Assembly (NCBI GenBank): GCA_009692945.1
Contig: SHYD01000001.1
Location: 77,898 to 136,494 of the forward strand
Length of the DNA: 58,597 nt
Direction of reading: 5' to 3'
Source of the DNA: Dehalococcoidia bacterium
GTDB lineage: Bacteria > Chloroflexota > Dehalococcoidia > SHYD01
The notes under the pieces were generated by a model. The model was given only the letters and a program-made list of their open reading frames with translations, did not search any database and was not told the origin of the DNA. This document shows, piece by piece, positions 25,963 to 50,465 of the stretch; positions within the stretch are counted from its first letter, which is position 1, and every line of letters starts with the position of its first letter. Both the position numbers and the translations under genes were made by a program.

Positions 25963-27804
25963 TCAATTGATGTTGACCACCGCACCCTTGAGGGTGAGTG
26001 GGCCGTTTGCTTTCACCGACATCGTGCCCTGCGCCTCGATGTTCACCGTCGATCCCTTCAACTCCAGTGTCCCGGTGGCGCTCACCGACGCGTTGCCGCT
26101 GGCCGTCACCTCGGCGTTCCCGCTGGCGGTGACCGTCACGTTTTGGCTGGCTTTCACCGTGGCGTTGCCCTTGACCTCGACAGTCGAGTCCTTCTCGGCC
26201 GACACCGTGGCATTGCCTTTGGCAATGATGGCCACGTCGGCGTCCGCCTGGATCGTGATCTTATTGGTGCTGGAGTCGATGGTGATCAGGTTTTTGCCGG
26301 TCTTGTCGGTTATGGAAATCTTTTCGGCGTTCTCGGTATCGTCCAGGCTGATGATGTGGCCGGAACGGGTCTTGATCATCCGCTCGTTGACCTTGCTGTT
26401 GGCCACCACCGCGCTGTTGGCCTTGGGCGGCTTGTCCTGGCCGTTCCAGAGCGAGCCCAGCACGTAGGGGCGGGTGACGTCCCCATGTTCAAAGGCCACC
26501 AGCACTTCGTCGTCCACCTCGGGCAGGAAATAGAACCCCCGTTCCCTCCCGGCCATCGGACTCGCCACCCTGGCCCACCAACTCTGCTCGTTGTCGGCCA
26601 GCCACGGAAACTTCACTTTGACCCGGCCCAAGCCCTTTTCAGCGTCGGTGTTGTCGGTCACAACCCCCACCACCACGCTGGGAAGCGACCATGAATCCCT
26701 CCTCAATCCCACCAACTCCAGCAGGGAATCGCTCTGCCTGCCTGTCACCTGAAACGTGGTGAGATAGCCCTCCGGGCCGCTGACCCGGTGCGTGGCGCCC
26801 GTCACGTAGTAGGTTCCGGACACCTTGGCCCCGACATCACCCAGTGCGATCTTGACCCCCGGTTTGATCGCAGCGTCCCCGAGGGAAACCCCCTCCGCCT
26901 GAACGTAAGAGCCGTCGAGGCTGTCAAAAGCCGCCTTGGCAAGCGTTTCCGCCTCCGCGCTGTCGGCGACGACGCGGTTGACCACCGAGAACTTTGCCGC
27001 GCCAAACAACTGAGCCACCTGTTTCCCGTTCTTTGCGAGGCTGGTAGCGGGCTCGGCCTGGGGGGTGGTGGCGGTCCCCACGATCGCCTGCTTCTGCTCC
27101 ATGTCCCAGCCGCGCACTTCCACCTCTTCCACCTGGTGTGCGGCCGATATTTTGACCCGGAAGCTGACGAGGTTCTCCCCAAGTTTCTGTTCCGGTCCGG
27201 TGCGGCCGCCGGTCTGCGGCTTTTGGAAATACAGCGTGGAGCCGTTCGCGTAGAGATCATAGCCAATGCGAGTGGCCCGTTCCTTGAGGAATTCCCAGTT
27301 GGTCTGGTTGTTCTGAAACAGATACGGGTAGACGTGCGATGTGGTATCCGCCGTGGCGGACATGCCCGCCTCCCTAGCCAACTGCGAGGCGATGTCGGAG
27401 TCCTTGATGTTCAGGAACGAACGGCTCTTCCTCCCGCGGTGCAACCGATGGGAACGGTCGTAGCCCCGCACGGTCAGGATCGGGGTGCCGTCTGGGGCCG
27501 CATCCACTTCGAGCGCGGTCACCTCGCCCTTGGTGACCTGCGAGAGCGTGGTCCCATACCCCATTTCGATGTTGACCTCCGCTCCCATCGGCAGCGTGTC
27601 GGCTTCGAAGATTTCGTAGGGGGTGACGGCTCCAGGATCGCCGGCGCTGCTGATATCGTGGAACCGGATCACAAACATGTCCGGCAGGTGGAGGCTCTGC
27701 TCGACCGAGACCTCGGCGACCCGTTCGTCGTCCTTGACCTCCAGTTCTGTGCCGTTGACCTTGATGCGAAACGACGGGACCCCGGCAATGGTTTCAGTTA
27801 CCAT
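25963..27804 (-). CDS. vgrG: eCIS spike protein, VgrG/Afp8-like
   Basis: Q.NQTNWEFLKERA hub, GRVKVKFPWL..SWWARV, GFYFLPEVDDEVLVAFEHGD OB fold, C-terminal beta-helix repeats. Confidence 0.93.
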   Translation of the reverse strand: MVTETIAGVPSFRIKVNGTELEVKDDERVAEVSVEQSLHLPDMFVIRFHDISSAGDPGAVTPYEIFEADTLPMGAEVNIEMGYGTTLSQVTKGEVTALEVDAAPDGTPILTVRGYDRSHRLHRGRKSRSFLNIKDSDIASQLAREAGMSATADTTSHVYPYLFQNNQTNWEFLKERATRIGYDLYANGSTLYFQKPQTGGRTGPEQKLGENLVSFRVKISAAHQVEEVEVRGWDMEQKQAIVGTATTPQAEPATSLAKNGKQVAQLFGAAKFSVVNRVVADSAEAETLAKAAFDSLDGSYVQAEGVSLGDAAIKPGVKIALGDVGAKVSGTYYVTGATHRVSGPEGYLTTFQVTGRQSDSLLELVGLRRDSWSLPSVVVGVVTDNTDAEKGLGRVKVKFPWLADNEQSWWARVASPMAGRERGFYFLPEVDDEVLVAFEHGDVTRPYVLGSLWNGQDKPPKANSAVVANSKVNERMIKTRSGHIISLDDTENAEKISITDKTGKNLITIDSSTNKITIQADADVAIIAKGNATVSAEKDSTVEVKGNATVKASQNVTVTASGNAEVTASGNASVSATGTLELKGSTVNIEAQGTMSVKANGPLTLKGAVVNIN

Positions 27805-27876
27805 GATGCAACTCCGTTTTACGTGTGCGTGGTCTGTGGCGATTCATGTATGGGCCGCCGAAGGTCGCAGTCCGTA

Positions 27877-28542
27877 CTAGAGTCCGGGAGGGAGCGCCAG
27901 CCGTTGCCCCGGGTGCAGCCGCAGCGGGTCTTCCAGGCCGTTGAAGTCGGCGATCGCCCGCCATTTCATCGGATCTCCGTACTCCTGATAGGCGATGGTG
28001 TCCAGCGTCTCCCCCTGGAGCACGGTCCTCACCTTGTACGACCGTGCGAAAGACGTCGGATTGGTTCCGCGCGTAGCGTCGCTCCCCTCCTCGACCATCC
28101 GGAACTCGAGGCTGAGCTTGGCCCGCACCGGAGTGCCGTCGGACAGGAACATGGTGAGCGCCTGGGTCACCGAGGTGATGACGGCGCGGAAATAGCCGCC
28201 CTTCCAACGGAAGCTGACCTTCTTGGGCCGCCCCAGCCTGGGTACGATCTTCATCAGGTTAAAGACCTTGCCGGTGTGCTCCCGGACGTCCGTGGCCGGG
28301 GTGGCCCCGTAGGTATCGAAGTGGAGGTCGTTCAGGGACAGCGTGGTGTCGCCGCCCGAGCCAAACACCACCAGCGGGATGTCCCGTTCGCGCTGTGACT
28401 CACTGGTCCAGTTGTTTGTCTTCTTGACCGTGTATTGTTCCGGGTTGAACATGAAGGTCACCACCGGCGCCGGTCCGGGGTCGTCCTCATCGAAGATGCC
28501 CGCCTTCACCGGGTGGGCATCCCCTCCGCCGCTCGTCGTCAT
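27877..28542 (-). CDS. eCIS tube initiator with C-terminal LysM (Afp7-like)
   Basis: FMFNPEQY, MFLSDGTPVRA, GETLDTIAYQEYGDPMKWRAIADFNGLEDP. Confidence 0.9.
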   Translation of the reverse strand: MTTSGGGDAHPVKAGIFDEDDPGPAPVVTFMFNPEQYTVKKTNNWTSESQRERDIPLVVFGSGGDTTLSLNDLHFDTYGATPATDVREHTGKVFNLMKIVPRLGRPKKVSFRWKGGYFRAVITSVTQALTMFLSDGTPVRAKLSLEFRMVEEGSDATRGTNPTSFARSYKVRTVLQGETLDTIAYQEYGDPMKWRAIADFNGLEDPLRLHPGQRLALPPGL

Positions 28543-28572: not shown

Positions 28573-31500
28573 CTACCAACCGTTCAAGCCACGGTTCGCC
28601 CCAAGCCGCTCTCGCTCCACCACCAACCGTTGCTTGATCAGAGCATAGACCTGCCGGGCCAACAGGTCGACATTCGGGGCCGAGGCTGCCTCTGCCTGCG
28701 GCCCACTCACTTCGTTCGTCACCATCCCGGGATAGGAACCGGGAGCCACCGCCTGAACCCCTGTGCGGCCGGTGGCGGCCAGGGCAACATCGCTCCGGCC
28801 CAATGGTGGCAGGGTCATCGGCCCAGCTGCCGTCGCGGCGGGTGAAGGTCCGGAACTCATGCCAGAAAGGGACGGGAAGCCGGACCGAAACGCGCCGCTG
28901 GCGGTCGCCCCGCCAGGCCCCAGATCGAAGCTGCTCATGGCAGTGGCCGGCGACGAGACGCCGGCGCCCTGGCCTGCGAACTCGAGTGCGGGGCCCTGGG
29001 GCCACCCCTCCACCTCAAATACGTCGATCCTGACCTGGGCTGCCGCCATTCCAAGGCCGGTCATCGCAGCTGGTCCCATCGCGTCCCTACCGGGCATGGC
29101 CAGAGCCACAGGTCTCAGATCGGTCATCTGGGGACCGCGGGGCAAGAACGGGGACGCGGCTACCGGGGAATCGGTGGGCCGGTGATCCGAAAACGCCGCC
29201 GGGGGCAGCAGGAGCCGGAGTTGCCCGGGCCTGTGAGCGATGGGGACCGCGCCGTTCAACCATGGCAGGTCTGCTAGGGAAACCGGCCCTTGCGGACCAC
29301 CGACGCTGAGCACGCCCGCTTCCATGGCCAGGTCCGGCTCGAACCTCGATGCCGGAACCGGTTCCCCTCGTACCCACTCGATGTGCAGTCCCCGCTCCTC
29401 GAGTTGGCGGATCAGCCCGGGATCGAGGTCCCCAGGCTCTGGGACAGGCGCTGGGGCCTCCCCGGCGACCCAGTCAAGGATTATCCGGACCGGCTCCACC
29501 GGGCCAGGGCGGCTATCAAGTCCCGCTGCACCCTCCAACGAACCTGCCATGGTTGCGCCCGGACGTAGCAGGAACCGCATCCCCGCGGGGCTCTCGGATC
29601 TCACCACAGCCCCCTCCAGAATGCCGAGGGCGCCCAGTGAGACCGGCCCATGGGGGCCTCGCACCGTTAACTCAGCGGCCCTCCGTCCGTGGTCCGAGGC
29701 CCTCGCTCCCAACGTCACCTCGATGCCACGTTCCAGGATTACGGGAAGTCCCGCTCGTTCCAGGCGGGCGAGCGCCGCTTGGATGCCCTCCCAAACGTTC
29801 GGGGTCGCCCAGGGGTCGTGACCACGGACCCAATCCAGCGTTAGGCGGACCGGTTCCGGCCGCACCGGCTCTGCTTCGGGGCCGAGGGAGAGTCCGCCGC
29901 CGTCGCGGCCCTCGGCCCGGTCTGTCCCAGCGCTCGCCGGGAAACCCGGTGAGAGTGGTCCGGTTGCTGACGGACGGTTCTCAGTCATCCAACGGCCCAG
30001 TTGCTCCCGGCCCGCTCCCTCCGTGGCCCAGGTGGACGCCATCGGGGTATCAAATTTAAGGGGCAACAGGTCGGACAAGACCGATACCGGCGAAGCGGCG
30101 CCACCCGCAGCGCCGGGCGACAGGCCAAACCCGGTTTGCTCAGCGGCGATCTGCTCCTCCGCGGCCCCGGCGAGCGCCCCCAGCCAATGCTGCTGAATGC
30201 CGGCGTCTGGCGATGCACCGGGCATGTTCAATCCCGCATCGCCGTGGTCCGCCTCAATCGGCGCTCCCGCGGTTCCGAGGAGGATTCCCAACCACTGCTG
30301 AATGCCGAGGTATGGGAGCGCACCGGCCCGGCCCGAACCGGCGTCGCCGGCTTGCCCCTCCGTCTTGTCTTCCTCGATTCCGGCGAGCGCCCCCGGCCAA
30401 TGCTGCCGAATACCGGCGTCTGGTGGTACGCCGGGCCCGCCCGATACGGCCTCGCCGGGGTCCGCCTCCACCCGAGCTCCCGCGATTCCAGGGAGGATTC
30501 CCAGCCACTGCTGCTGAAGACCAACATGCGGCCACGTTCCGGCCATGGCCGATCTGGCGTTGCCAGCGGTAGGGGCGCCCTGTACCGCCGGTGTTGGGAT
30601 CCCGACAAAGTCCATACCCAAATGGGCAGATGACGCCGCTCCGAGGTGAGCGATTGAGAATGGCTCAATCGCTTCCGCGCTGACTCGATCCCCCGATTGA
30701 ACCTCCTGCGCATCTCCTCGTTGCTGCCCGCCGGCGGTGGGAGGCCCGGGGGATTGATCAGCGCCGGCCAGCACCTGAACCGCCCCGGGGCGGTGGGCGA
30801 TGAGACCGGAGCGCTGCAACAACTCCACCCCACTCAATGGCGCCGGGCCGGACTCACCCAGGAGGATCAACCCAGAGGCCGGACCGCCCAGGCCAGGGGA
30901 CACGGCGGACTCACGCCCCCGTTCAAGTTCAACCCGCAGGCCGAACTGTTCCAATCGCCGCAGGGAGCGCCGGGTCTCGGCCAACTGCTCCGGGTGCTGC
31001 CAGGGGTCGTGCCCAGCCACCCAATCGACGGTAATGCGGACTGGCTCAAGGGAACCGGTGCGCCCGCCAGCGTTGGGTGGCTGCCTCTCCTCCGCCACGG
31101 GGGCTTGGGGCGCACCGGTAGCCGCGCCGCCATGCTGCGCGCTCGAAGCCATTCCAGCGTCACTTCCGCCGCCCGCTGCGTCAGCGGGCGTGCCTCCTGC
31201 GGGCCTGGCTGCCGGTGCGGCGTCGGTTTGTACGAGGTCCATTGTCAGCGGATCTCCCGCGCCGCGCAGCGGCGACCAAACCGCTGCGCCATCGTGCCAA
31301 TCCCATCGAGGAGCGGTTTGCAGGTTCCCAAGGTTAAGGATGGCGGGCCCCGGATCAGCGGCGCCGCCGGAATCCAATACCTCGCTCATTGCGGCTGCGT
31401 GGGGGAAATCGACATCTCGGTGTGTCAATAGCGCCGGTGCGCCCCCCGCGATTGCCGGACCCGGCAGCCACCGCCAGCCGGCGGTCTCACCTGGTTCGAA

Positions 31501-34263
31501 CGGGGCGCCAATCCCGGCGCCAGAAGAGGAGCGCGGGCGGCGGGAGGCCGGGGAGCCGGTTGCAGCGGGAACCCGGGAAACTTCGCCAGAGAACGACCCG
31601 GCGTCGCCCCGGATGGGGGCGATACCGGGTGGAGAGGACGGGGTGGCGGCATCCGGCGACGGGCCTTCCTGAGGCTCAAAGGCAAGCGCCCCGGGCGTCG
31701 CCCCGATTGGCCCGGCTGGGACGGAGTTCGGGGGATCCGGCATGGGGCCTCGTTGCTCCGGGCCGGAATCCCCGGACATAGCGGCCGCCTCGCCATCCCC
31801 TTCAGACGTAAAGACGAAGGGGTCCTGGACGAAGGGCGTATCCGTGGGATAGCCACCCGGTGGCAGCACCACCTGGAGCAAGCCCGGTCGGTCGCCGATG
31901 ACCATCACGGCATCGCCAAAGCCGCCCAGGTCCAAGGCCACCGGGCCCGCGGCGGTCATTACCCGGAGCGCCCCAGCCGGGTGCGCCGCTCCGGGATCGA
32001 ATTGCGCCACAGAAACGCCCCGGCCGGGAGCCAGGCGCAGATGGATCCCCTGAACCCGCAGGGCCTCAACCAACCGGTCCGCTCGCTCGGGAAACCCGGG
32101 TGTCTGCCAGGGATCGCTGCCGGCAACCCAGTCCATCACGAGCACGATCTCTTCCCGTGCCGCGCGGGCGCCCGCCGGTTCCGGGGCGCTGAGGGGAGGT
32201 TCAGTGAGCGGCTGATCGGTGGCGCCCGGTCCCGCAGGTGTTCCGGGGCCTGGCCTGGCCCCGGATTCGCCGCCCGCCGCCACCGCACCCCAGTCCGCTG
32301 CCCATGGCTCCACGGCGGCCGTGGCAGATGTCGCCGCCTCTTCCGATCCGGGGGGTGACGTCAGATTAAATGGCTCGATGGAGGGAGGACCCGATGGCTC
32401 CGTAGCGTCCTGGGGGGCGATGGACGGACCGCGAGCCGCTGGAACCCGTCCCACCGTGGCTGCGGCGGTCGAGCTTCCCCCGCCCTCATTCGGCCCCTCC
32501 GGGGTCGCCGCCGGTGCAAACGTCATTCCGGATGTCGAACTAGGGCCGCCTGTTGCTGGACCAGGCTCTGGGGCGCCACTCCCAGCGCCCACAGGGGTGG
32601 CGGTGGAGGTTGTGGTGGGTGCACTGCCAGATTCTGGCCTCGTAATTGCCGGTGGCGGGTGCCCAGGCTCGTTCGGTCCGGCGCCGAGGAGGTCCGGAAA
32701 CGGCGGAGCTGAGAGCTCCGTGCCGCCCGGGGGAAAGGAGCCCGGTACGTCATCCGCCCTTGTCACGGCGTAAACCGGGCCCATCCTTATGAGAGCGGGA
32801 CCCACCGTTGCAGGCGGGGCGGGCCCAGCCGTGGGAGCAGAAGGCAGCATCGCCGGCGCGGGGGGCGACGCCGCCGGTGGCCCACCGATTGGCGTGGCCT
32901 GCGGTCCGGCGACAGAGGCTCCCGGCGGTTCTTGCCTCGATCCCGAGGCGCTGACCCCAGGGGAACCCGCTTGTTCCACTCTGGACGGCAAGGGTTCCTT
33001 TTGCTCGGGGGCCGGGCTCCCCATCGGCCCCGCCTGGCCCCTCGGAGCGTCGACCGGCGCGCTCGGACTCTCAGGCAGGACCAGGTCGAAGGCCGGCGAC
33101 ATTGGCGCATCGAACGCCTGATGCAAACTGCCGGGGCGATCCCCAGATGGAACGCTTGCGGGAACGGGTCCCCGGGGCGGCGCACCCCGCTGGGCAACCA
33201 CCGATTGAGCCAGCGGTACCGGCCTGGAGATGGAAATGGCTGGGCTGGGTTGGAAGGGCGACTCGGAGCCGCCCAGGCCGCCTTCCGGCGTACGCTCCGC
33301 CGGTGTGGCCGGACGCGCCGTTCCCGGCGGCGCTGGGGTCCGTACACCCGCAACACCCTCGGCGTCGTCAGCCGAGAACCCCTCCCCGGACCCGGACCTT
33401 TGGCGGACCTGCGGCTCAGTCGAAGGCGAATGTGCCGTGTTCCCCTCACGGTCTGATGTCAGCAGGGGCAGGCCGGGAAGGGGATACCCCACCCCGGCAG
33501 CCGCGGTTCCGCTCAGCCAGTCGAGCCAGTTGGTGGTCCGGACCGCGTGCCCTTCGAGCAGCTCGGGAATCCCGCCCAGGGCGCCGGCCATCCGCAGCCT
33601 CGGCTGGGATGCCGTCGCGGGAAAGAACGCCGTCGCTGCCCCGCCGGCGGCGCGCTGGGCGGCCCGGAACGGGGCAACGTGCGCTCCGTCCCGGGCCCCA
33701 CGGTTCGCGACGACCGATCGAGCCAGCGACCGGGGGCGGGCGCCGGCGGTGCCGGAAACCGGCGACCCCGCAGCTCCCGGCGCTGCGGGGGACGCTTCAA
33801 AGGTTGGACCGTGCTCTGAGGCGGGTGTCGCTCGATCGCCAGGCCGGGCCTGGGTGCGCCGCGCGGCCCGCACCCCAGCCCAAAGGTCAAGGGGGTCGCC
33901 CGAACTGGCCACGGCCTCGACCGCGTCGTCTTCGTCCCATGCGACGAAGGGCATGTCCAGCGGGGAATAGTGGTCCCCACCCCCGTCATCGAGGGCTAGC
34001 CAGTCGAGCCAGCCCAGTCCCCGCTGAGCGATTTCGCCGAGGAAATCGAGGGTGCCGGCCAGACCGGCCGTCAACTCGGCCGACCGCTGGGACAATCGCT
34101 CGGCGACGGTGGGGGCCGCCACCCTGGAGGCGATGGTTGCGGCGAACCCCCGCCGTGCCGTTAGCGCCGGGTCACCGGACAGTTCTAGCGCGGCTGCGCC
34201 GTCGGCCGGGAGGTGGCTTTGCCGGCTCGGTGGGGACGCCTGGCCCCCCTCGGGCTCAGCCAT
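28573..34263 (-). CDS. Giant Pro/Ala/Gly-rich eCIS-associated protein (1896 aa)
   Basis: Single ORF co-oriented inside the operon; four ~90-aa repeats; C-terminal helix VDLLARQVYALIKQRLVVERERLG. Confidence 0.8.
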   Translation of the reverse strand: MAEPEGGQASPPSRQSHLPADGAAALELSGDPALTARRGFAATIASRVAAPTVAERLSQRSAELTAGLAGTLDFLGEIAQRGLGWLDWLALDDGGGDHYSPLDMPFVAWDEDDAVEAVASSGDPLDLWAGVRAARRTQARPGDRATPASEHGPTFEASPAAPGAAGSPVSGTAGARPRSLARSVVANRGARDGAHVAPFRAAQRAAGGAATAFFPATASQPRLRMAGALGGIPELLEGHAVRTTNWLDWLSGTAAAGVGYPLPGLPLLTSDREGNTAHSPSTEPQVRQRSGSGEGFSADDAEGVAGVRTPAPPGTARPATPAERTPEGGLGGSESPFQPSPAISISRPVPLAQSVVAQRGAPPRGPVPASVPSGDRPGSLHQAFDAPMSPAFDLVLPESPSAPVDAPRGQAGPMGSPAPEQKEPLPSRVEQAGSPGVSASGSRQEPPGASVAGPQATPIGGPPAASPPAPAMLPSAPTAGPAPPATVGPALIRMGPVYAVTRADDVPGSFPPGGTELSAPPFPDLLGAGPNEPGHPPPAITRPESGSAPTTTSTATPVGAGSGAPEPGPATGGPSSTSGMTFAPAATPEGPNEGGGSSTAAATVGRVPAARGPSIAPQDATEPSGPPSIEPFNLTSPPGSEEAATSATAAVEPWAADWGAVAAGGESGARPGPGTPAGPGATDQPLTEPPLSAPEPAGARAAREEIVLVMDWVAGSDPWQTPGFPERADRLVEALRVQGIHLRLAPGRGVSVAQFDPGAAHPAGALRVMTAAGPVALDLGGFGDAVMVIGDRPGLLQVVLPPGGYPTDTPFVQDPFVFTSEGDGEAAAMSGDSGPEQRGPMPDPPNSVPAGPIGATPGALAFEPQEGPSPDAATPSSPPGIAPIRGDAGSFSGEVSRVPAATGSPASRRPRSSSGAGIGAPFEPGETAGWRWLPGPAIAGGAPALLTHRDVDFPHAAAMSEVLDSGGAADPGPAILNLGNLQTAPRWDWHDGAAVWSPLRGAGDPLTMDLVQTDAAPAARPAGGTPADAAGGGSDAGMASSAQHGGAATGAPQAPVAEERQPPNAGGRTGSLEPVRITVDWVAGHDPWQHPEQLAETRRSLRRLEQFGLRVELERGRESAVSPGLGGPASGLILLGESGPAPLSGVELLQRSGLIAHRPGAVQVLAGADQSPGPPTAGGQQRGDAQEVQSGDRVSAEAIEPFSIAHLGAASSAHLGMDFVGIPTPAVQGAPTAGNARSAMAGTWPHVGLQQQWLGILPGIAGARVEADPGEAVSGGPGVPPDAGIRQHWPGALAGIEEDKTEGQAGDAGSGRAGALPYLGIQQWLGILLGTAGAPIEADHGDAGLNMPGASPDAGIQQHWLGALAGAAEEQIAAEQTGFGLSPGAAGGAASPVSVLSDLLPLKFDTPMASTWATEGAGREQLGRWMTENRPSATGPLSPGFPASAGTDRAEGRDGGGLSLGPEAEPVRPEPVRLTLDWVRGHDPWATPNVWEGIQAALARLERAGLPVILERGIEVTLGARASDHGRRAAELTVRGPHGPVSLGALGILEGAVVRSESPAGMRFLLRPGATMAGSLEGAAGLDSRPGPVEPVRIILDWVAGEAPAPVPEPGDLDPGLIRQLEERGLHIEWVRGEPVPASRFEPDLAMEAGVLSVGGPQGPVSLADLPWLNGAVPIAHRPGQLRLLLPPAAFSDHRPTDSPVAASPFLPRGPQMTDLRPVALAMPGRDAMGPAAMTGLGMAAAQVRIDVFEVEGWPQGPALEFAGQGAGVSSPATAMSSFDLGPGGATASGAFRSGFPSLSGMSSGPSPAATAAGPMTLPPLGRSDVALAATGRTGVQAVAPGSYPGMVTNEVSGPQAEAASAPNVDLLARQVYALIKQRLVVERERLGANRGLNGW

Positions 34264-34294: not shown

Positions 34295-34765
34295 CTACCG
34301 GACAGCCTTATTGATACGCCAGCCGCTGTGGGCCAACTCCAAGGCTTCCACCGCGATCCCGTTGCCATCGGCTCGAAAGTCAGGACCGGTCCATTTGACG
34401 GGGAAGGCTTTTTCCAGGTCCCACGAGAACCGGCTGTCGGTCGTGCTGACACCCCGGTTCGGGAACGCCAGGATCGAAACCGGCTTGGTCTCAAGCTTGC
34501 CCTCAATAATCTTCAGGTACCAGCTCCACAGTTCATCCGTTGCGGTCCAGCCACGTTTGAGGACGATGTTGTTCCATTTGGTGGTCTTGATCAGCTGCCG
34601 CATCCCGGAGTTGTAGCCACCCTCCTTGAACGACTCCACCTCCGTCTGAACGGTGAGGCCGGTGCATTCGGTGAACGACGCAACGGCGATCCCGTTGATC
34701 TCCACCCAGAACTTGCCCTGGCTGAAGGGGTCCACCAAGCGCCCACCGGCCGGTTGCGACGTCAA
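34295..34765 (-). CDS. Tail tube protein 2 (T4 gp19-like)
   Basis: FTECTGL, KEGGYN, NIVLKRG, AFPVKWTGPDF, IAVEALELAHSG; TTG start overlaps the upstream stop. Confidence 0.9.
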   Translation of the reverse strand: MTSQPAGGRLVDPFSQGKFWVEINGIAVASFTECTGLTVQTEVESFKEGGYNSGMRQLIKTTKWNNIVLKRGWTATDELWSWYLKIIEGKLETKPVSILAFPNRGVSTTDSRFSWDLEKAFPVKWTGPDFRADGNGIAVEALELAHSGWRINKAVR

Positions 34766-35739: not shown

Positions 35740-35749
35740 CGTGGGGTTT

Positions 35750-38635: not shown

Positions 38636-38731
38636 GTGGTGCAACTCCTTCTGAAGACTTGACCGCCGAAGATGACGCGATCACGCGTCCAGCCGCGGGG
38701 CGACCGGCCCCACCATGCCTCAACCGGGTAG

Positions 38732-42836: not shown

Positions 42837-44876
42837 CTACGAAGGCCACTTCTTGATCACTTTACCCTGTTCAAAAGTTGCGGTGAGCACCGGCGTCTCA
42901 ATACCCCGGGATTGTTTCGCGGTGAGCTTGACCTCCCACGACTTGAGCTTCCCTCCCGCCTCGGTGAGAGTCACCGACGCCTCGATCCCGATGGCGGAAG
43001 TCCGTGAGGTTTCGACCTCCTTGCTTGGGTCAAACTTCTCGAACTTGATCTGAGGGTCGCTCTTGACGGCAGTTTTGACGGTGTCTACCATCGACGCAAA
43101 ATCTCCCACCATGTTCGCTCCGGTGGCCGCCGCGTTGGGGTCCTCCTCAGCGGCGGATTCGGCCTTTTCTGCCAACAGCGGTGTCATGCGGGTCGCCATA
43201 TTGCCAATATAGGCGACGAGTGCCGACCCGGCGCCACCGCCCCCCAATTCCAACAGATTGAACATGGCGCTGGCGCTGATTTCCAGTTCCCGTTCTTCCG
43301 ATCCGATTGTGTATTCCGCCGACCCCGAGAACGGCCCGAACTCGGCCTCGAACCCAAGCACGCCCTCCATTTTGGTCTGACCCGACGACTTGCGCGCGCC
43401 CCGGGCCTTGGGCATCCGCAGCGCCGCCAGTTCCTTCACCGACAGTTCATCCAGCTTCTTGCCGCCGGTCTGTTTGTGGATGGACGCCTCGACAGACTCC
43501 TTGTTGTACTCGGTGAAATGCCGCGCCTTGGCAGACCCGCCCAATTTGCCACCCGTCACACCACCCTCTGCCTTGATCGATGCATAGGCGCCCCTCCGGA
43601 CAAACCGCTCGCGGTCGTCGGTGCCCTTCGCCAGAACGCCCTTTTCAACCTTGGACGCCCAGCGCTCAGCGAGCTTGTAGCCCTGCCGGGACATGGTGCC
43701 GCCCCACATATAACTGGCCACCTCCCGCGGCAGCACGGAGGACTCCCGGAACTTCTGATACATGGCATAGGAGATGAGTTTCATCACCTCGACACCGGAC
43801 CCACCCTTGGCCTCGATGAAGCCGCCGAGTTCGCCCTGGAGTTTGGCCACGCCGATCGAACCACCGGCCGTCACTCCCAGTTCATTGCCGACCTCGACAT
43901 CGTTTTTATCGTCCTTTTCCGCGCTCATGGTGAGATGGAACCCTATCTCTACACCCGAGGGCGGGATCGGGATGGCCAGATCGAACTCGAACTCGGCAGT
44001 GGTGTCCGGCTGAGGTACGGCCAGGTCGATCAGACCCGCCAACCGCTCCGACGCTTGTTTGAAGTCTCCGGTCAGTTTGTCCTGGACCTTTTTGGTCTTG
44101 GCGTCCGGGGCCACCACCGCGGCCTGCTGCCCTTCCGGGAACTTGACCGCCTCCAGTTTGGCCTTCTCGGCCAGGGCCATCGACTCGAGGTTCTTGACCC
44201 CAGGTGTCCGTTTCGCCACCGCATCGGACGTTCCGTCGGCGTTCTCCTCCCGCCACTGTGCTGTTACGTCCAGTATCTCTTCGAGCACCGCCACCAGCGT
44301 GTCCCGCTGGCTGGAGTTTTCCGGAGGAGCGGTGAGGCCGTGGTACTCGTCCAGCCACTGGTCGATCTCGGTCAGGGTCCCGCCCCGCACGCTGGTGCGG
44401 TCCACATAGGTTGCTGCAGAGAACGTTTCGGCCGTGATCAGCCGCTGGACGGCCGGTGCCTCAGGATAGATAAGCCGGATATTTTCGTTGCCGCGGGCGG
44501 GGTCCGGCAAAGCAAGCCTCGCCAGCTTGGGAAGCGCCACCGAACGGGCTCGACTCGGCGCAGTCGCAGCAGCCGAGGATTGGGAACGGGGACTTACTCC
44601 CCCCGGAACGCCCGCGCCAACACGGGCGACACCGCCGGTCTGCGCCATGCGCTGCAACGTCTGGTTTCCCAGCGTGCGCTGTAACGCCAGGATGGCTGGA
44701 GAGGATATTCCCCGTCCTACGGCCATGGCCGTTTGCAGTGAGGCTACCGCAATCGCAGGACCCATGGCGCCGGCTTCCGGAAACCTTGCCTCGGCCTCGG
44801 TCTGGGAGACCGTCGCCGGGCGTGGCGCCGGGTCTTTATCCGAACGCTGGCTGCGAAGTTGAGAATTCTTTGCCAC
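42837..44876 (-). CDS. Putative eCIS cargo/effector protein
   Basis: ILALQRTLGNQTLQRM and PAVQR leader motifs followed by unrecognised domains; start uncertain (GTG 44876 behind GAGGAG; frame open to 44969). Confidence 0.65.
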   Translation of the reverse strand: MAKNSQLRSQRSDKDPAPRPATVSQTEAEARFPEAGAMGPAIAVASLQTAMAVGRGISSPAILALQRTLGNQTLQRMAQTGGVARVGAGVPGGVSPRSQSSAAATAPSRARSVALPKLARLALPDPARGNENIRLIYPEAPAVQRLITAETFSAATYVDRTSVRGGTLTEIDQWLDEYHGLTAPPENSSQRDTLVAVLEEILDVTAQWREENADGTSDAVAKRTPGVKNLESMALAEKAKLEAVKFPEGQQAAVVAPDAKTKKVQDKLTGDFKQASERLAGLIDLAVPQPDTTAEFEFDLAIPIPPSGVEIGFHLTMSAEKDDKNDVEVGNELGVTAGGSIGVAKLQGELGGFIEAKGGSGVEVMKLISYAMYQKFRESSVLPREVASYMWGGTMSRQGYKLAERWASKVEKGVLAKGTDDRERFVRRGAYASIKAEGGVTGGKLGGSAKARHFTEYNKESVEASIHKQTGGKKLDELSVKELAALRMPKARGARKSSGQTKMEGVLGFEAEFGPFSGSAEYTIGSEERELEISASAMFNLLELGGGGAGSALVAYIGNMATRMTPLLAEKAESAAEEDPNAAATGANMVGDFASMVDTVKTAVKSDPQIKFEKFDPSKEVETSRTSAIGIEASVTLTEAGGKLKSWEVKLTAKQSRGIETPVLTATFEQGKVIKKWPS

Positions 44877-45001
44877 GCTTCTCCTCACCGATTCCTCCCG
44901 CCGCCCGCTCCAATGGGCGACGATCTGGGACAAATTACCCCAACCCATCATCCCAACAGGCTGGGCCAACGGGGTGATCCCGCGTCGGTTTGGCCTTCGA
45001 G

Positions 45002-45817
45002 TTAGCCCTGAAGCAGCTCCTCCTCGGGGCCTGCCCGCTGGACGTAGCCCTGAAGCAGCTCCTCCTCGGGGCCTGCCCGCTGGACGTAGCCCTGAAGCAG
45101 CTCCTCGTCCTCGGGGCCTGCGCGTTGGATAGGAGAAGGGCTCGCAGGCGCGGACGCCGAGGTGGGTTTGGCGCCATCGGCCGTGGAGCCAACCAACCGG
45201 TCCGCCTGATGCACCGCAGCCCGCTCGTAAGGATCGCCGGGGCTGCTGATCGCCACGCCGCCGGCAACCGGCGTTCCGGCGACCGGCCCCGACCTTTGCT
45301 GCACCACATGGGTGGCCTCGTGGGCCAACATTCGGATTCCTTCCGGCGCGTCCGGCTGGTAGTTGCCGGACCTGAAAAAGATATCGGACCCGGTGGTGAA
45401 CGCTTCTGCGTTGACGGCCTGCGCCAGCCGATCCGCCTCGGAATCGGCATGGACCCGAACACCTGAAAGGTCGGCCCCCAAGCCAGACTCGAGGCTACGC
45501 TGGAGCGGCGCCGCCAGCGGTTGACCACTTCCGGCAGCATTCTTGATCTGGCGGCCGAGGTCGGGAGTGGGTCGCCCCTCTTCTTTGGTGGCGATGGCCA
45601 GGCGCTGGATCGCAGCGTTTCCCAGGCCGTGTACGCCGCCGCTCAACACTGCTGCACGGGCGCCGAGTTCTGCGGCTACTTGCTGCAAGGCCTGATTGCC
45701 CAGCGAAGGGGAAATATCCGATGCAGCAGACGATCGATCAGCCTCGACCTGCTCAGCGGCGATAGGCCTGGGCAATTTGCGGGCTAGCCGCTCAGAAATG
45801 TTGGCCGAACCTTCCAT
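45002..45817 (-). CDS. DUF4157 protein ending in QRAGPEEELLQGYV repeats
   Basis: LGNAAIQRL, GADLSGVRVHAD, AEAFTTGSDIFF, LAHEATHVVQQ, SSPGDPYERAA; ATG 45817 with GGAGG RBS. Confidence 0.9.
   Translation of the reverse strand: MEGSANISERLARKLPRPIAAEQVEADRSSAASDISPSLGNQALQQVAAELGARAAVLSGGVHGLGNAAIQRLAIATKEEGRPTPDLGRQIKNAAGSGQPLAAPLQRSLESGLGADLSGVRVHADSEADRLAQAVNAEAFTTGSDIFFRSGNYQPDAPEGIRMLAHEATHVVQQRSGPVAGTPVAGGVAISSPGDPYERAAVHQADRLVGSTADGAKPTSASAPASPSPIQRAGPEDEELLQGYVQRAGPEEELLQGYVQRAGPEEELLQG
45003..45125 (-). repeat. 42-bp coding tandem repeat, about 3 copies
   Basis: + strand unit GTAGCCCTGAAGCAGCTCCTCCTCGGGGCCTGCCCGCTGGAC. Confidence 0.9.
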
Positions 45818-45876
45818 TTGAGGGGCCTCCCTTAACTCCAAGGCGTTGTCTTGGGTGCACTCCAAGGCATCCCGGA

Positions 45877-45908
45877 ACGGTAGCATTGGCCGGTTAATAT
45901 TTGGTTAT
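45877..45908 (-). promoter_or_regulatory. Effector/ATPase-operon promoter: two TAACC repeats at 11-bp period plus extended -10
   Basis: GGTTA on + strand at 45892 and 45903; minus-strand TGcTACCGT at 45885-45877. Confidence 0.65.
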
Positions 45909-45925
45909 TTAGACGCCGATTTCCA

Positions 45926-45955
45926 TTGACGCAGGCACAAGCCGTCCGCTATGCT
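45926..45955 (+). promoter_or_regulatory. Sigma-70-type promoter of the FHA-SARP-kinase operon
   Basis: TTGACG-18 nt-TATGCT. Confidence 0.6.
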
Positions 45956-46019
45956 TAACCGCGTTCGGCGGACTCTGGAGAGGGCGATCCGAGCTAACCG
46001 GCTGCGGAGGTCAGATCGA

Positions 46020-46634
46020 TTGCCGAAACATTCCTGGGCCGTGTTGCTCGCCATCGTGTTGGCCGCCACGGTTGTGGACCGGACCGAGGCGGCGAATCAG
46101 GCTGCGGCGGCGCCCGAATCGCCCCAATCGGCGATGCTCACCGTGGCGGTGCTACTCGGGATCGGCCTGTTGGCCGGCTTGCTTGTGTTCCGCCATGGCG
46201 GCCCCCCCGCCCAATCCGAGGTCGAGGAGATCGAGGCCGACCCTGATGAGACCGAAACGCTGACGGAAGTGGCCAGCGCAGGCTCGGATTCGGCGCCCCT
46301 CGCCGCACAACTGATATTCGATACGCCGGAGGGCCGGAGCCAAGTACTGCTGCACGGCGAGGAGTCGATTCTGGGGCGGGACCCCCTGGCGACCGTGGTG
46401 TTGACGGACCCCTTGGCCTCCCGGCAGCATGCCCGCATCACCCGGCACGAGGGCGAGTACTGGATCGAAGACCTGCGAAGCATGAATGGGACCCTGGTGA
46501 ATGGGACCGCCCTGAGCCGGCAGCGCCTTGAACCCGATGACCTCATACAGATCGGACAGGCCAGGATCACGTTCGCTTTGGAAAGCCCGGCGGCCAGCGG
46601 AGCGCCCGCCGCTCCCCCCCCGGTCCATGACTGA
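46020..46634 (+). CDS. Membrane-anchored FHA domain protein
   Basis: Two N-terminal hydrophobic segments; LGRD, ASRQHARI, DLRSMNGTLVNG FHA motifs; TTG 46020 behind GGAGG. Confidence 0.88.
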   Translation: MPKHSWAVLLAIVLAATVVDRTEAANQAAAAPESPQSAMLTVAVLLGIGLLAGLLVFRHGGPPAQSEVEEIEADPDETETLTEVASAGSDSAPLAAQLIFDTPEGRSQVLLHGEESILGRDPLATVVLTDPLASRQHARITRHEGEYWIEDLRSMNGTLVNGTALSRQRLEPDDLIQIGQARITFALESPAASGAPAAPPPVHD

Positions 46635-47511
46635 GGCCCAACGTACCATGGACTCAGGGCGCCGCCATCCAGTGGCGGTTGCCATGGCGCACCATCCCGG
46701 CTCGTCCGCGACGCCGGTGCCCCCCGCGCCTCTGGCAACTGACGCCGGCGGGGACCTCGCTGTGTTGGTCACCTGCTTGGGCCGCTTTCAGTTCAGTCTG
46801 CCTGCGGGCCACCCGATTGAGTGGCGGTCCACCAAGAGCCGGGCACTGCTCCAATATTTGTTGAACCATCGCGACCGTCCCATACAGCGCGACACCCTGA
46901 TTGATGCCTTATGGCCTGATCCCAGAGCCCTCGCACCGGCCACCTCCCTGAAGGTAGCGGTGCACGGGCTCCGGCACGCCCTGGCAGCAGGGGGGGGCGG
47001 TATCCCCGTCACCATTGTCGCCCACCACTCTGCCTATTCGTTGGAGGCATCCCGGATCTGGTTGGACGTGGAGGAGTTCGAACACTGCTACCAGACAGGC
47101 CGCGCCTCGGAAGCGAGGGGATTCGCCGCCGAGGCGTTGAGGTATTACGCCCGTGCGGCCGAACTCTACCGGGGTGACTTTCTGGAAGAAATAGCCGACG
47201 AGTGGCCGGTGTTCCGGAGGGAAGCCCTGAAGGACCAGTATCTCTTCTTGGCCACCGCACTGGCCCGGGCCGCGATCACGTCCGGCGATTATCAGGAGGG
47301 CGTGACCCTGTGCCAGCAGATCCTCACCAAGGACCGGTGTCGCGAAGAAGCGTACCAGATGCTCATGGTGTGCCACAGCAAACTCGGGCAGCGCGGGCGG
47401 ATCCGGTGCTGGTACAACCTGTGCGTGCGCACCTTGAAGACCGAACTGGACTGCAGCCCCGCTCCCGAAACCTCAGATACCTACCTGCGGGCCCTGACCG
47501 GCGCCCTATGA
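46627..47511 (+). CDS. AfsR/SARP-family transcriptional activator (winged HTH + BTAD)
   Basis: CLGRFQ, KSRALLQYL, RDTLIDALWP, WLDVEEF, LYRGDFLE, REEAYQMLM, ELDCSPAPET. Confidence 0.9.
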   Translation: MTEAQRTMDSGRRHPVAVAMAHHPGSSATPVPPAPLATDAGGDLAVLVTCLGRFQFSLPAGHPIEWRSTKSRALLQYLLNHRDRPIQRDTLIDALWPDPRALAPATSLKVAVHGLRHALAAGGGGIPVTIVAHHSAYSLEASRIWLDVEEFEHCYQTGRASEARGFAAEALRYYARAAELYRGDFLEEIADEWPVFRREALKDQYLFLATALARAAITSGDYQEGVTLCQQILTKDRCREEAYQMLMVCHSKLGQRGRIRCWYNLCVRTLKTELDCSPAPETSDTYLRALTGAL

Positions 47512-50465
47512 CTTTCGCTGCCGCGCCAACGGTCCCCGGGTACCGGCTCCTTCGCCGTATCGGCAGAGGTGGATCGGGCGAGGTGTATGAAGGCCGTGCT
47601 GAGGCAACCGGCGGACGCGTCGCCGTTAAGGTGCTCCACGTTGGGGCAGGAGGACGCCATGCGGGAAGTGAACTCGACCATGAATGGGACGCGCCGCACC
47701 TGGGGGAGACCCGGCATGGGGCCCTGATGCCAACATATGCTGTGGGGCAGACCGCCTCGGTCCGCTATTCGGTGATGCCCCTAGCCGAGGGGGGCAGCCT
47801 CAAACGTCTCATCAGCGCCGGGTGTCCGCTGCCGGTGGAGTGGGCCGCCGGTGTGATCGAACAGATTGCGTCCGCCCTCGAACACCTGCATCAGCACAGG
47901 CTGCTGCATCTCGACGTCAAACCCTCGAACGTGCTGCTCACGGGCGACGGCCGGGCGCTATTGGGGGATCTGGGGAACGCCCGCGCGGTCAACGGAGGGG
48001 ACCAAACCGCGCTCAGGGGACTCATCGGCGGCACTCCGGGGTACATGGCGCCGGAGCAGCGGCACGGTGGACCCCTGGACGCCCGCACTGACGTGTTCGG
48101 TCTGGCGGTGACCGCCTGCGAGTTGCTGACGGGATGCCAACCATTCCCCAAGGATTCACCCACCACCGCCCAGGCCATCCCGCAGGCCACTCTGAATCCG
48201 AGGCTCAACCAGCGGGTGGGCGCGGTGCTCCTGCGAGGCATGGCGCCAAACCCCGAAGACCGCTTCGAGTCCGCGGGCGGATTCGCAGCGGCGCTCACGG
48301 CATCACTTCGCCCGTTTCGTCATCATCCGAACTTTTGGGCGCCAGTTGGCCGGTGGGAGTCCCCCACGAACGGCGGTAAGGGTTGGGCGGATGGGAAGCT
48401 CCAACCAGCGGAGTTGAACAGCGCAGGGGGCCGTGTTACGCGCAATGCGCTGCCGCCAACACTGTTGCTGCTGCTGGTGGGGCTAGGGGGGATGCTGCTT
48501 GCAGCAAACTCCGATGCCGGGGGGGGCATGGTGGCAGTGGCCGGTTGGTTGTTGGCTGTGCGCTGGGGCATCGCCTCGGCCTCGCTCCGCTGGGCGCCCG
48601 CCCTCCTGGGCCGCCTGCTGGTGGCCGCACCCACCCTGCTGCCCCCGACCCGGACCAGGGCCTGGCAGGCGGGTTGCCGGGCCACAATCCTCCTAGTTGC
48701 GGACCTCGCGTTGTGCGCCTTTGCCACGGCGGCCTTGTTGGCCGGTCCGCTCCCCATTGACAACACCATGGAGGCCGGACGTTCCCTGACCCTGGGTTGG
48801 GCCGCCGTGCTTACCTGCCTCGTCGCGGGAGCCCGGCTGCTCCGAAGCAGTGGACTGGGAACGTTGCCCCTCGCTTTGCTGGCGGCCAGCCCGGGGCTGA
48901 TGGCGCTTCCAAACCTGTTGGGGCTGGGTCCGCCCACGGCAGGTTGGTTCAGGGCGGCGGTGGCCTTGGAGATTCTCATTGCGATCGCGCTTGGCCGTAG
49001 CGGGTGGGCGCCCTGGACCCGAGCGCTTGTATCAGCATTGCGCCGAAGCCGCCATGGGCCCGCAACTCCGGCGCACGGCCGGGCGAGTTCACCTGATACC
49101 CCCGGCCGCCAGCGCCCGGTTCGGGCGGCGGCGCTGGGATTGGTCCTGCTGTGCCTCGCCGGTTGCGCGGGAGATCAGGCTGGCCCGCAACCCGTCGCGG
49201 CCCCCACGCCGTCGTCCGGCGCGGCGGAATCGGTCCCCATAGACGCCATCGAACTGACACAGCCGGTGGAACTGGTTTTCTGGCACCAACACAGCGTCGA
49301 ATTCGACCCGTTGCAGCAGCGGATCATCGATGAATTCACCACCCGCCACCCCAACATCACGATCAAGACCGAGGCCTTTCCGCACTACAACCGCATCTAC
49401 CAAAGGGTGTTGGGAGCCATCCAGGCGGGCGGGAACTCGACGCCCGATCTGGTGGCGACGTTCGAGTCCCAGGCGGCCGAATACTATGAGGCTGGGGCGG
49501 TGGCGCCTTTCGATGACTACGTGGCGAGCCCGCGCTACGGCCTGACGGCCGCGGAACAAGCGGATTTCGTCCCATCGTACATCGACGCCACCCGGTTCCC
49601 TCAGTACGGCGGCAAACGCTTGACGTACCCCTTCACCAAGAGCGCGCTCCTGCTGTACACCAACCTGCGGGTGCTGCGTTCCTTGGGCTTCCAGCAGCCG
49701 GCCGCCACTTGGGGTGAGTTTCTGTCCCACTGCCGGAGGGCTGCGTCCTTGAACCGGGAGTGTTACGCCATGGAAGCGGACCCTTCCACGGTGGACGGCA
49801 TCATTTTCAGTTACGGCGGCGAGGTTGCCGCGCCCGACGGCACCCGGAGCCGATTCGATGAACCGGCGACGGCCGCCGCCCTCGACCTGTATGCGACCCT
49901 CGGCGAGGAACGGCTGGGCTACCTGGCGCCGGGTTCGGGACTCCAGATTGCGGACCTAGCCTCGGGCAAGGCGCTGTACCTGATGCGGTCCAGTTCGGCG
50001 CTCCCTCGACTGGACGCCCGGTTCCCGAACCCGAACGACTGGGAGGTCAGCATCATCCCTCAAGGCCGGCCGGACAAAAAGGTGACCGTGCTCTATGGCG
50101 CCAACATCACGATCATGAAGTCCACTCCCGAAAAACAACTGGCGGCATGGCTGTTCATCAAATACTTCACGCAGCCCGACGTCACGGCCCGCTGGGGATT
50201 GGACCCCTCGAACGGCTACTTTCCGCTGCGCAGTTCCGGGTTGAACACCCCCGAATCCCGCAGGATCCTCGGCGAAAACCCTCATTTCGCCAAGGCGCTG
50301 GAGATATCCCGCTTCGCGCGGGTGGAGCCCAGTGCCCTGGGGTGGCAACAAGTGCGTCTGTTGCTTCAGGAAGCCGCCACCGACGTTTTCCTAGGCAGGC
50401 TTTCGGTGGACGAAGCCCGGCGGGTCTTGGTGGAGCGCGCCAACCGGGTGCTGGGCCAGCAGTAG
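47508..50465 (+). CDS. Ser/Thr protein kinase - transmembrane - extracellular solute-binding protein (family 1) fusion
   Basis: GRGGSG, VAVK, HLDVKPSN, DLG, GTPGYMAPE; several TM helices; LCLAGC; SBP motifs LVFWHQH, FTTRHPNITIK, QLAAWLFIKY; ATG overlaps the SARP stop (ATGA). Confidence 0.85.
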   Translation: MTFAAAPTVPGYRLLRRIGRGGSGEVYEGRAEATGGRVAVKVLHVGAGGRHAGSELDHEWDAPHLGETRHGALMPTYAVGQTASVRYSVMPLAEGGSLKRLISAGCPLPVEWAAGVIEQIASALEHLHQHRLLHLDVKPSNVLLTGDGRALLGDLGNARAVNGGDQTALRGLIGGTPGYMAPEQRHGGPLDARTDVFGLAVTACELLTGCQPFPKDSPTTAQAIPQATLNPRLNQRVGAVLLRGMAPNPEDRFESAGGFAAALTASLRPFRHHPNFWAPVGRWESPTNGGKGWADGKLQPAELNSAGGRVTRNALPPTLLLLLVGLGGMLLAANSDAGGGMVAVAGWLLAVRWGIASASLRWAPALLGRLLVAAPTLLPPTRTRAWQAGCRATILLVADLALCAFATAALLAGPLPIDNTMEAGRSLTLGWAAVLTCLVAGARLLRSSGLGTLPLALLAASPGLMALPNLLGLGPPTAGWFRAAVALEILIAIALGRSGWAPWTRALVSALRRSRHGPATPAHGRASSPDTPGRQRPVRAAALGLVLLCLAGCAGDQAGPQPVAAPTPSSGAAESVPIDAIELTQPVELVFWHQHSVEFDPLQQRIIDEFTTRHPNITIKTEAFPHYNRIYQRVLGAIQAGGNSTPDLVATFESQAAEYYEAGAVAPFDDYVASPRYGLTAAEQADFVPSYIDATRFPQYGGKRLTYPFTKSALLLYTNLRVLRSLGFQQPAATWGEFLSHCRRAASLNRECYAMEADPSTVDGIIFSYGGEVAAPDGTRSRFDEPATAAALDLYATLGEERLGYLAPGSGLQIADLASGKALYLMRSSSALPRLDARFPNPNDWEVSIIPQGRPDKKVTVLYGANITIMKSTPEKQLAAWLFIKYFTQPDVTARWGLDPSNGYFPLRSSGLNTPESRRILGENPHFAKALEISRFARVEPSALGWQQVRLLLQEAATDVFLGRLSVDEARRVLVERANRVLGQQ

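Follow-up and report, generated by a model that had tools for sequence, protein, structure and literature searches.

What governs a contractile injection system (CIS) whose head gene lies back to back with a kinase operon? The question is raised by a 58,597-nt stretch of DNA from a Dehalococcoidia bacterium (contig SHYD01000001.1, C37 in our numbering, positions 77898-136494), which is called the window here. Its source assembly, G000 (GCA_009692945.1), comprises 2.5 Mb in 99 contigs and is 81% complete. Pfam scans placed CIS core genes at window positions 25963-45886 on the minus strand, in line with the ~20-kb minus-strand injection-system cluster described in an earlier note on this DNA. 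Divergent from them lie the genes of a membrane FHA protein, a SARP (Streptomyces antibiotic regulatory protein)-family activator and a Ser/Thr kinase fused to a solute-binding protein (SBP). Judged by genome comparison, it is fairly likely that we are dealing with a Streptomyces-like CIS that has a dedicated threonine-phosphorylation control module, with one branch acting on transcription and another on assembly or firing. That the kinase, FHA and SARP genes are functionally tied to the CIS, and are not mere neighbours, appears well supported, because the SARP groups in a tree with others that adjoin CIS genes, FHA and SARP genes head CIS clusters in other genomes, a kinase adjoins a CIS head gene in genome G312, and the domain census of the assembly leads back to CIS loci.

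The operon consists of three plus-strand genes with overlapping coding regions. The first (45951-46634) encodes a protein with a basic N-terminus, two hydrophobic segments (residues 24-42 and 62-80; membrane segments were taken from a Kyte-Doolittle hydropathy window) and a C-terminal FHA domain (E 2.3e-18), whose phospho-threonine-binding motifs GR, SRQH (SxxH) and NG are intact. The second (46627-47511) encodes a SARP of 294 aa with the domain order of that family, Trans_reg_C (E 2.4e-7, residues 101-155) followed by BTAD (E 9e-22, residues 179-319, both in the numbering of the long open reading frame (ORF)). The third (47508-50465) encodes the Hanks-type Ser/Thr kinase-SBP fusion of 985 aa (Pkinase E 1.2e-34, SBP_bac_8 E 1.4e-27, and SBP_bac_1). 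The end of the FHA gene (stop codon 46632-46634) and the start of the SARP gene (ATG at 46627) share 8 nt; at the next junction, the kinase start codon (47508) and the SARP TGA interlock in an ATGA. Both the overlaps and the nature of the three proteins are as the earlier note had read them.

The catalytic motifs of the kinase (VAVK, HLDVKPSN, DLG and GYMAPE) are intact, and the enzyme is of the non-RD type, with HLD in place of HRD. A multi-pass membrane region separates the Pkinase and SBP domains. At residues ~530-556 (window 49100-49180) a lipoprotein-type signal was found, in which an Arg-rich loop and a hydrophobic segment lead up to an LAGC lipobox ahead of the SBP domain; because of this arrangement the binding domain should face outward, and the SBP part looks like a captured lipoprotein gene. 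It matches sugar and UgpB-type binding proteins (family-1 SBP, SBP_bac_1/8) with E values of 1e-16 to 1e-14. If signal peptidase II cleaved the internal LAGC, the binding domain would be freed as a lipoprotein; in G141, a genome of the same family, SBP and kinase are encoded separately and their genes stand in a different order. Among 821 hits, one other full-length kinase-SBP homolog was found, at 81% identity and in a Chloroflexota metagenome-assembled genome; the remaining matches listed covered the kinase domain only. This homolog is consistent with the earlier assignment of the DNA to a probable Chloroflexota. The sister proteins P0005 and P0125 are 81-84% identical, and no relative was returned when the whole kinase was searched against the genome-contig collection. 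These searches indicate that the fusion is private to this lineage.

The operon and the CIS head gene do share a divergent region, although it is shorter than the ~200 bp first estimated. The longest ORFs are 64 bp apart, and the distance becomes 133 bp (45818-45950) when measured from ATG 45817, the likely true start of the head gene, which has GGGAGG 8 nt upstream. The region contains a 10-nt perfect direct repeat (45835-45844 and 45859-45868, spacing 24). The estimated chance expectation of an exact 10-nt repeat in 181 nt is ~0.02, and the motif has 13 occurrences in the assembly. We treat it as a candidate regulator site and a weak lead. SARP sites have repeat spacings of 11 or 22 nt, and the orthologous loci have different repeats, such as a 9-mer with 22-nt spacing that the congeneric genomes G497 and G467 have in common. 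The motif, ACTCCAAGGC, recurs a third time at 34336, where it falls within the second tube gene; the gene for a 1896-aa protein starts 73 nt downstream. A promoter scan gave one weak site, which overlaps the FHA start codon and from which nothing was drawn.

No baseplate wedge gene was found in the window. The baseplate half of the cluster lies on a second contig, C33, where FabF and Mur ligase genes (minus strand) are followed on the plus strand by PAAR, gp25, Baseplate_J, Tail_P2_I, FHA+DUF4159 and FHA-Ig genes. Two of these proteins carry N-terminal FHA domains: the FHA+DUF4159 protein (522 aa), and the FHA-Ig protein (945 aa), which also has an Ig-like domain and one transmembrane segment at residues 373-391. 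At least one Pkinase, one BTAD and three FHA domains are thus encoded in G000, all at the two CIS loci, the kinase and FHA counts being lower bounds because the assembly is 81% complete. The same census was made in five other genomes. Four of the six showed no FHA domain outside their CIS loci: such loci account for 3 of 3 in G000 and 4 of 4 each in G497 (99% complete), G595 and G467, compared with 3 of 10 in G475 and 3 of 5 in G312. Pkinase domains numbered one in G497, two in G595, one (fragmented) in G467, five in G475 and four in G312.

The fusion of FHA to DUF4159 was first considered as a feature unique to G000, which was ruled out by the presence of PF00498 in 52 of 68 homologs. In a 400-genome sample of the phylum, the long form was found in six genomes used here and in one further genome that was left out. 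In seven same-class relatives the DUF4159 proteins are 371-410 aa long and start at the conserved core; three of these seven were scanned with Pfam and have DUF4159 and no FHA domain. FHA-Ig proteins flank the CIS cluster in four genomes of family f18. ORFs of 2375-3069 aa that match FHA-Ig were also seen flanking the CIS at loci L010, L011 and L019 (genomes G099, G227 and G199) of one Dehalococcoidia family, and those of L010 and L011 start with an FHA-like N-terminus.

The type of the CIS was then read from its sheath and baseplate genes. Among solved structures, the best relatives of the sheath are 8BKY and 8BL4, models of the Streptomyces cytoplasmic CIS (Casu 2023, PMC10066040), with E 1e-155 and 1e-152 over residues 6-512, its full length, whereas matches to Pvc2 and Afp2 (E 1e-53 and 1e-43) cover only the C-terminal ~200 residues. 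The cluster has a single-ORF spike of 613 aa (GPD and Phage_base_V), one PAAR and a single Baseplate_J at the CIS loci; contig C41 gave a further, weak match to Baseplate_J. Chen 2019 describes subtype IId by a contiguous afp8 ORF, a single afp11 and PAAR, with which this cluster agrees. The hallmarks of Afp/PVC subtype I, several sheath paralogs and a fibre gene, are not seen here, where the sheath is the single match in the whole assembly and the ORFs scanned at the two loci gave no match to a tail-fibre family; some ORFs there lack annotation, and no more than 189 nt of C33 follow FHA-Ig. The earlier classification as Afp/PVC-type was therefore given up. Since the sheath is closest to that of the Streptomyces cytoplasmic CIS, the system is probably not extracellular; it is probably a subtype-IId, Streptomyces-like CIS that stays intracellular or membrane-tethered and is not released. 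By analogy with these relatives, the particles would be retained inside the cell.

A link between the SARP and the CIS came from comparison of SARP loci. Species-representative genomes were queried with four CIS-linked SARPs, which gave 51 loci. Among the 14 closest (≥49% identity), 11 have CIS genes immediately downstream and three lie on contigs that end within ~2 kb; four of the 11 CIS-flanked loci were already in the same-class sample described below, and seven are from new genomes. The 37 more distant loci gave no CIS gene match, and five of them have a kinase match nearby. In a SARP tree of 31 rows, one clade (support 96/93) holds 17 SARPs, namely 12 labelled CIS-adjacent together with those of the window, G141, G497 (two copies) and G595. 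Of the 16 SARPs that accompany the window SARP in this clade, 15 adjoin CIS genes, and all 12 labelled non-CIS fall outside it. Also outside are the CIS-adjacent SARP of G195 and an unlabelled weak copy of G019, which lies downstream of a CIS cluster. The SARPs of the window, G141 and the plus-strand copy of G497 group together at 100/100.

Of 300 other genomes of the same class, 25 gave a sheath match; among seven same-family genomes there was none. For the same-class comparison, 20 upstream and 15 downstream flanks were taken from 21 sheath-bearing genomes, and the window and C33 proteins were placed on them by tblastn. The gene order in the class is (SARP), ATPase, DUF4157, cap, sheath, tube, 126-aa protein, tube, tape measure, Afp7 and spike, followed by (PAAR), gp25, J, I, DUF4159 protein and Ig protein(s). 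The ATPase gene and its flank were seen in 16 same-class loci, and in 6 of them the gene immediately before it, on the same strand, encodes a SARP.

The CIS proteins of G497 and G595, which belong to another class, are much closer to those of the window than the same-class proteins are (identity in G497 and G595, respectively: sheath 63% and 53-79%, ATPase 57% and 55%, spike 54% and 60%). In the closest CIS relatives, G497, G467 and G595 (all three of that other Chloroflexota class; sheath 53-79%), an FHA partner and a SARP stand at the head of the cluster, and FHA-DUF4159 and FHA-(FHA)-Ig stand at its tail. The head in G497 and G467 consists of a divergent SARP, a VWA+Big_7+FHA protein, a SARP (57% to the window), an opposite-strand ABC transporter and DUF4157, and the cluster continues through I, FHA-DUF4159 and FHA-FHA-Ig. 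The transporter between SARP and CIS head gene in G497 (L117, C109 15521-19509) comprises two permeases and an SBP_bac_5 protein. In G595 a divergent SARP is followed by the FHA protein and then by the DUF4157 head gene. One 5.4-kb contig of G312 carries a kinase, a divergent VWA-FHA partner and a DUF4157 head gene, with no SARP on the contig. Orthologs of the FHA partner were thus found in G141, G497, G467, G595 and G312.

G141 belongs to the family of the window organism. A 3.4-kb contig of this genome carries an FHA gene truncated at the contig end, followed by genes for a SARP (58%), a stand-alone SBP (48%) and a kinase (43%, likewise truncated), and other contigs run from a tape-measure-like gene to J and from J to FHA-Ig; the genes from spike to FHA-Ig are 42-78% identical. 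Sheath, tube and eCIS_core were not found in G141, and Baseplate_J was. G141 is therefore not an instance of the cassette without a CIS, which would speak against a functional link. Because J and other CIS genes are present and the genome is in 860 contigs, the missing sheath part is most likely an assembly gap. On contig C239 of G141 (L137, 6330-6635), FHA-Ig is followed after ~190 nt by the start of a kinase-like ORF that is cut off by the contig end; over 73 aa it shares 37% identity with the G497 kinase, and its identity to the G141 cassette kinase is only 27%.

A kinase tree of 17 rows placed those of the window, G141 and G312 and the sole kinase of G497 in one clade (support 96/89), with G595_a and G007 as its next relatives.

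Several results weigh against a phosphorylation module that belongs to the CIS. No relative of the window kinase was found in any of the 35 same-class CIS flanks, and neither a kinase nor a small FHA gene lies within 10 kb of the 14 closest SARP loci, so the kinase layer is not general to SARP-linked CIS. The co-occurrence of the triad with CIS loci, which the earlier note had proposed to test, is accordingly partial: FHA and SARP do stand at the CIS head in G497, G467 and G595, and a kinase does in G312, but the same-class flanks have no relative of the window kinase. The kinases of G497, G595 and G467 are unlinked to the CIS, and 7 of 10 FHA domains in G475 and 2 of 5 in G312 lie away from CIS contigs. 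G007, whose kinase is near the clade, gave no sheath or Baseplate_J match. G141 hints at a second kinase after FHA-Ig, where C33 ends; no kinase is present in the last 189 nt of C33. No PP2C phosphatase (PF13672, PF00481) was found in the 81%-complete G000, in which 'only kinase' and 'all FHA domains' are likewise minimum counts. The comparison set of the kinase tree was a convenience sample of 13, with 3 further G312 and 4 further G475 kinases left out, and related genomes are non-independent observations. In the divergent region, the 10-nt repeat has no conserved counterpart ahead of the orthologous genes of G497, G467, G595 and G312, and its spacing of 24 nt is unlike the 11/22-nt spacing of SARP sites. 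The support for a control module is throughout a matter of genomic association.

With these points counted, a module with two branches still appears the most probable reading, and it could work as follows. The kinase would autophosphorylate when a ligand binds to its extracytoplasmic sugar-type SBP, and the phospho-threonines would be read by the three FHA domains of the assembly. In the transcription branch, the membrane FHA protein, predicted to be co-transcribed with the SARP, would relay the signal to the SARP, which would in turn activate the divergent CIS operon. In the assembly or firing branch, FHA-DUF4159 and the single-pass FHA-Ig protein may link the particle with the phosphorylated complex in the membrane and so license assembly, anchoring or firing, in a manner resembling T6SS (type VI secretion system) Fha1 and Streptomyces CisA. 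The activation by ligand, the phosphorylation partners, the binding of the SARP at the promoter and the role in assembly or firing are all what we infer from gene content and position. The FHA and SARP genes were earlier described as a split EmbR-like pair; they are indeed separate genes, and the likeness to EmbR is one of analogy, the FHA partner being membrane-bound and having VWA and Ig domains in G497.

The overlapping stops and starts of the FHA-SARP-kinase operon, its position divergent from the CIS head gene and the CIS-associated clade of its SARP would also suit a purely transcriptional relay, in which a ligand acts through the kinase and the FHA/SARP pair on the CIS promoter and the accessory FHA domains stand outside kinase signalling. 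PknH-EmbR and AfsK-AfsR are precedents for such a relay, and BTAD regulators of extracellular CIS (eCIS) are modelled in Geller 2021 (PMC8213781). However, two of the three FHA domains found in G000 form part of conserved CIS accessory proteins, which makes purely transcriptional control unlikely; moreover, the FHA-DUF4159 fusion is kept in the majority of its homologs, and with one kinase found, the accessory FHA domains have no other obvious writer. These same fused domains speak for a purely post-translational control of the PpkA/Fha1 kind, in which kinase and FHA proteins would act on assembly or firing, with a SARP that is constitutive or separately controlled and merely shares the operon. 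The closest SARP loci, with their lack of a nearby kinase or FHA gene, and the G312 contig, where kinase and FHA partner stand at the CIS head with no SARP, agree with that explanation. Against it, FHA partner and SARP adjoin in G000, G141, G497, G467 and G595, and the overlap of their coding regions in G000 suggests a joint function. We judge both of these one-branched explanations to be improbable, and to about the same degree.

It is more improbable still that the adjacency has no functional meaning and the kinase-SBP protein senses a nutrient for an unrelated purpose. Standalone SBP homologs (~54% identical) do occur in G124 and G106, in which no CIS tube, eCIS_core or Baseplate_J was found, and the full-length fusion is known from a single other homolog. 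Yet all kinase, FHA and SARP domains of the G000 census lie at CIS loci, G312 provides an independent neighbourhood of kinase and CIS head gene, the kinases form a clade as do the CIS-adjacent SARPs, and G141 keeps the cassette and has a CIS. The two-branched control module thus remains the preferred reading. A bolder form of it is that one kinase, three to five FHA readers and one SARP make up a self-contained phospho-threonine circuit that triggers an intracellular CIS of Chloroflexota, the kinase sensing through its sugar-type ectodomain and the logic of T6SS PpkA/Fha1 having been reinvented independently. This we advance tentatively, as a possibility whose chances are somewhat below even. 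If true, the circuit would name the signal input of a cytoplasmic CIS, licensing both transcription and, by way of the FHA domains on baseplate-distal membrane accessory proteins, membrane docking and firing.

The remaining CIS genes of the window, all on the minus strand, are described from the operon head onwards. The head gene (45002-45886) encodes the first DUF4157/eCIS_core protein (PF13699, E 3.1e-30), which is 47-60% identical to the head genes of G467, G595 and G312. Beside it lies a 710-aa ORF (42837-44969) with no Pfam family; an Atlas search with this protein gave no usable match (top score 0.84). It is a candidate cargo protein, and according to Geller 2021 (PMC8213781) toxins neighbour DUF4157 genes. 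It is followed by a YbjN-domain protein (41832-42815; PF10722, E 6.6e-13), possibly a chaperone, a homolog of which comes after the DUF4157 gene at locus L078 and is missing from that position in G497. Next are an Afp15/Pvc15-like AAA+ ATPase (39621-41756; WHD E 2.5e-37, AAA E 1e-31), a Pvc16/Afp16-like cap or terminator with a CarboxypepD_reg-like C-terminus (38794-39624; Pvc16_N E 5e-28), the sheath (37106-38644; Phage_sheath_1 and 1C) and an Afp1-like tube protein (36613-37062; Phage_T4_gp19 E 2.1e-37). The 126-aa CIS protein (36191-36571) has no Pfam family, is 55-76% identical among relatives and keeps its position in all related loci examined. A conserved small ORF of 94 aa (35750-36034) has tblastn matches at the equivalent position in G497, G595 and G019, and the position of the second DUF4157/eCIS_core gene (34762-35769; PF13699, E 9.6e-23) is matched in G497.

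The second tube protein (34295-34813; Phage_T4_gp19 E 6.5e-34) is Afp5-like. Between its gene and the Afp7-like gene lies the ORF of the 1896-aa protein (28573-34263), which has no Pfam family. Internal repeats are indicated by several query segments that align to one target segment in G497 and G141, the final ~30 residues are conserved in relatives, and the position of the gene suggests a tape-measure role. The cluster ends with an Afp7-like tube-initiator/LysM protein (27877-28542; CIS_tube E 2.4e-23, LysM E 3e-5) and the VgrG-like spike, the Afp8/Cis8 equivalent, as one contiguous 613-aa ORF (25963-27804; Phage_base_V E 5e-29, Phage_GPD E 1.3e-8) that is 54-60% identical to the spikes of G497, G595 and G141. 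The spike is the last CIS gene at the window locus and is followed by Ham1, MoaA and RNaseH-MoaC ORFs. In the last of these (23106-24071, minus strand), a single ORF joins an RNase H domain to MoaC. At the other side, the Ser/Thr kinase gene is followed immediately by overlapping genes for a DUF3037 protein and a HipA_2-like kinase (50572-51757, minus strand), possibly a toxin-antitoxin-like pair, and an SBP_bac_5 gene (55039-56838) lies ~4.5 kb beyond the kinase.

The break of the CIS falls between the spike (window 25817-25963) and PAAR (L004, C33 2840-4212), and on each contig housekeeping genes lie next to the break. The two halves are contiguous in every related locus examined, including the same-family G141, so the split is particular to the G000 assembly or its genus. 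A VgrG/PAAR split ancestral to the family was ruled out by the contiguity of both genes in G141, and a misassembly in G000 is a possible source of the two-locus arrangement. At the PAAR end, a minus-strand ORF of 497 aa rich in Arg, His and Gly (L004 2928-4421) was considered as a gene; its only matches are antisense to PAAR genes, and it is probably an antisense artefact.

Parts of this picture have been anticipated. In Geller 2021 (PMC8213781), BTAD is an eCIS-enriched 'shell' domain, and BTAD/GerE regulators are described as 'occasionally activated by kinases'. The earlier statement that no described eCIS was controlled in such a way was hence too strong, and the SARP part of our proposal is a confirmation rather than a discovery. 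The kinase named in that work is a histidine kinase next to GerE, in contrast to the Hanks Ser/Thr kinase here, and FHA has no mention in its main text, while its supplementary domain tables may list more. FHA, kinase and SARP likewise have no mention in the main texts of Casu 2023 (PMC10066040), Casu 2025 (PMC12237407), Vladimirov 2023 and Chen 2019, nor do these terms or BTAD in that of Gaisin 2026 (PMC12998442); the supplementary tables of Vladimirov 2023 may list FHA/Pkinase. A link of FHA or a Hanks kinase to a CIS was not found in the open-access CIS literature searched, in which only T6SS papers join FHA with contractile machines.

The trigger of cytoplasmic CIS is an open question, and this lineage offers a compact, testable input path, made of a single kinase with a ligand ectodomain, few FHA readers, two of them in CIS accessory proteins, and a CIS-specific SARP. 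Three limits apply: these are uncultured organisms, the evidence comes from genomes, and published work had already foreseen the SARP part.

Among known systems, the T6SS has a threonine-phosphorylation pathway, PpkA-PppA-Fha1, in which a Hanks kinase with an extracytoplasmic sensor acts together with an FHA protein. As there, kinase and FHA proteins are encoded with the contractile machine. The machine itself is different, since the window CIS has a phage-like cap, an ATPase and DUF4157; a cognate PP2C such as PppA was not found here, FHA is fused to DUF4159 and to Ig/transmembrane proteins, and a SARP is part of the module. PknH-EmbR and AfsK-AfsR pair a Ser/Thr kinase with a SARP-family activator, and EmbR has an FHA domain as well. 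EmbR holds SARP and FHA in one polypeptide, whereas the window FHA is a separate upstream gene whose product has two hydrophobic segments. AfsR carries an NB-ARC/NOD and TPR extension, whereas the window SARP, at 294 aa, ends with BTAD. The targets of those two systems are cell-wall and antibiotic genes; here the proposed target is the CIS.

Nearer in phylogeny is the Chloroflexota/Deinococcota CIS lineage of Gaisin 2026 (PMC12998442). That work reports intracellular CIS particles in Roseiflexus cells, which are of the same phylum and in the subtype-IId neighbourhood, and states that close cisA homologs are absent. Nearest in sheath sequence is the Streptomyces CIS-Sc (Casu 2023, PMC10066040; Casu 2025, PMC12237407), which also resembles the window system in having one sheath gene, a single-ORF spike, PAAR and one J. 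Like CIS-Sc with CisA, the window organism encodes a single-pass membrane accessory protein with the cluster, here FHA-Ig, by which homology is not implied. The two differ in that the cluster of the window organism is split over two loci, and in that the regulator named for CIS-Sc is sco4263, whereas the window system comes with a kinase, FHA proteins and a SARP, of which those papers make no mention.

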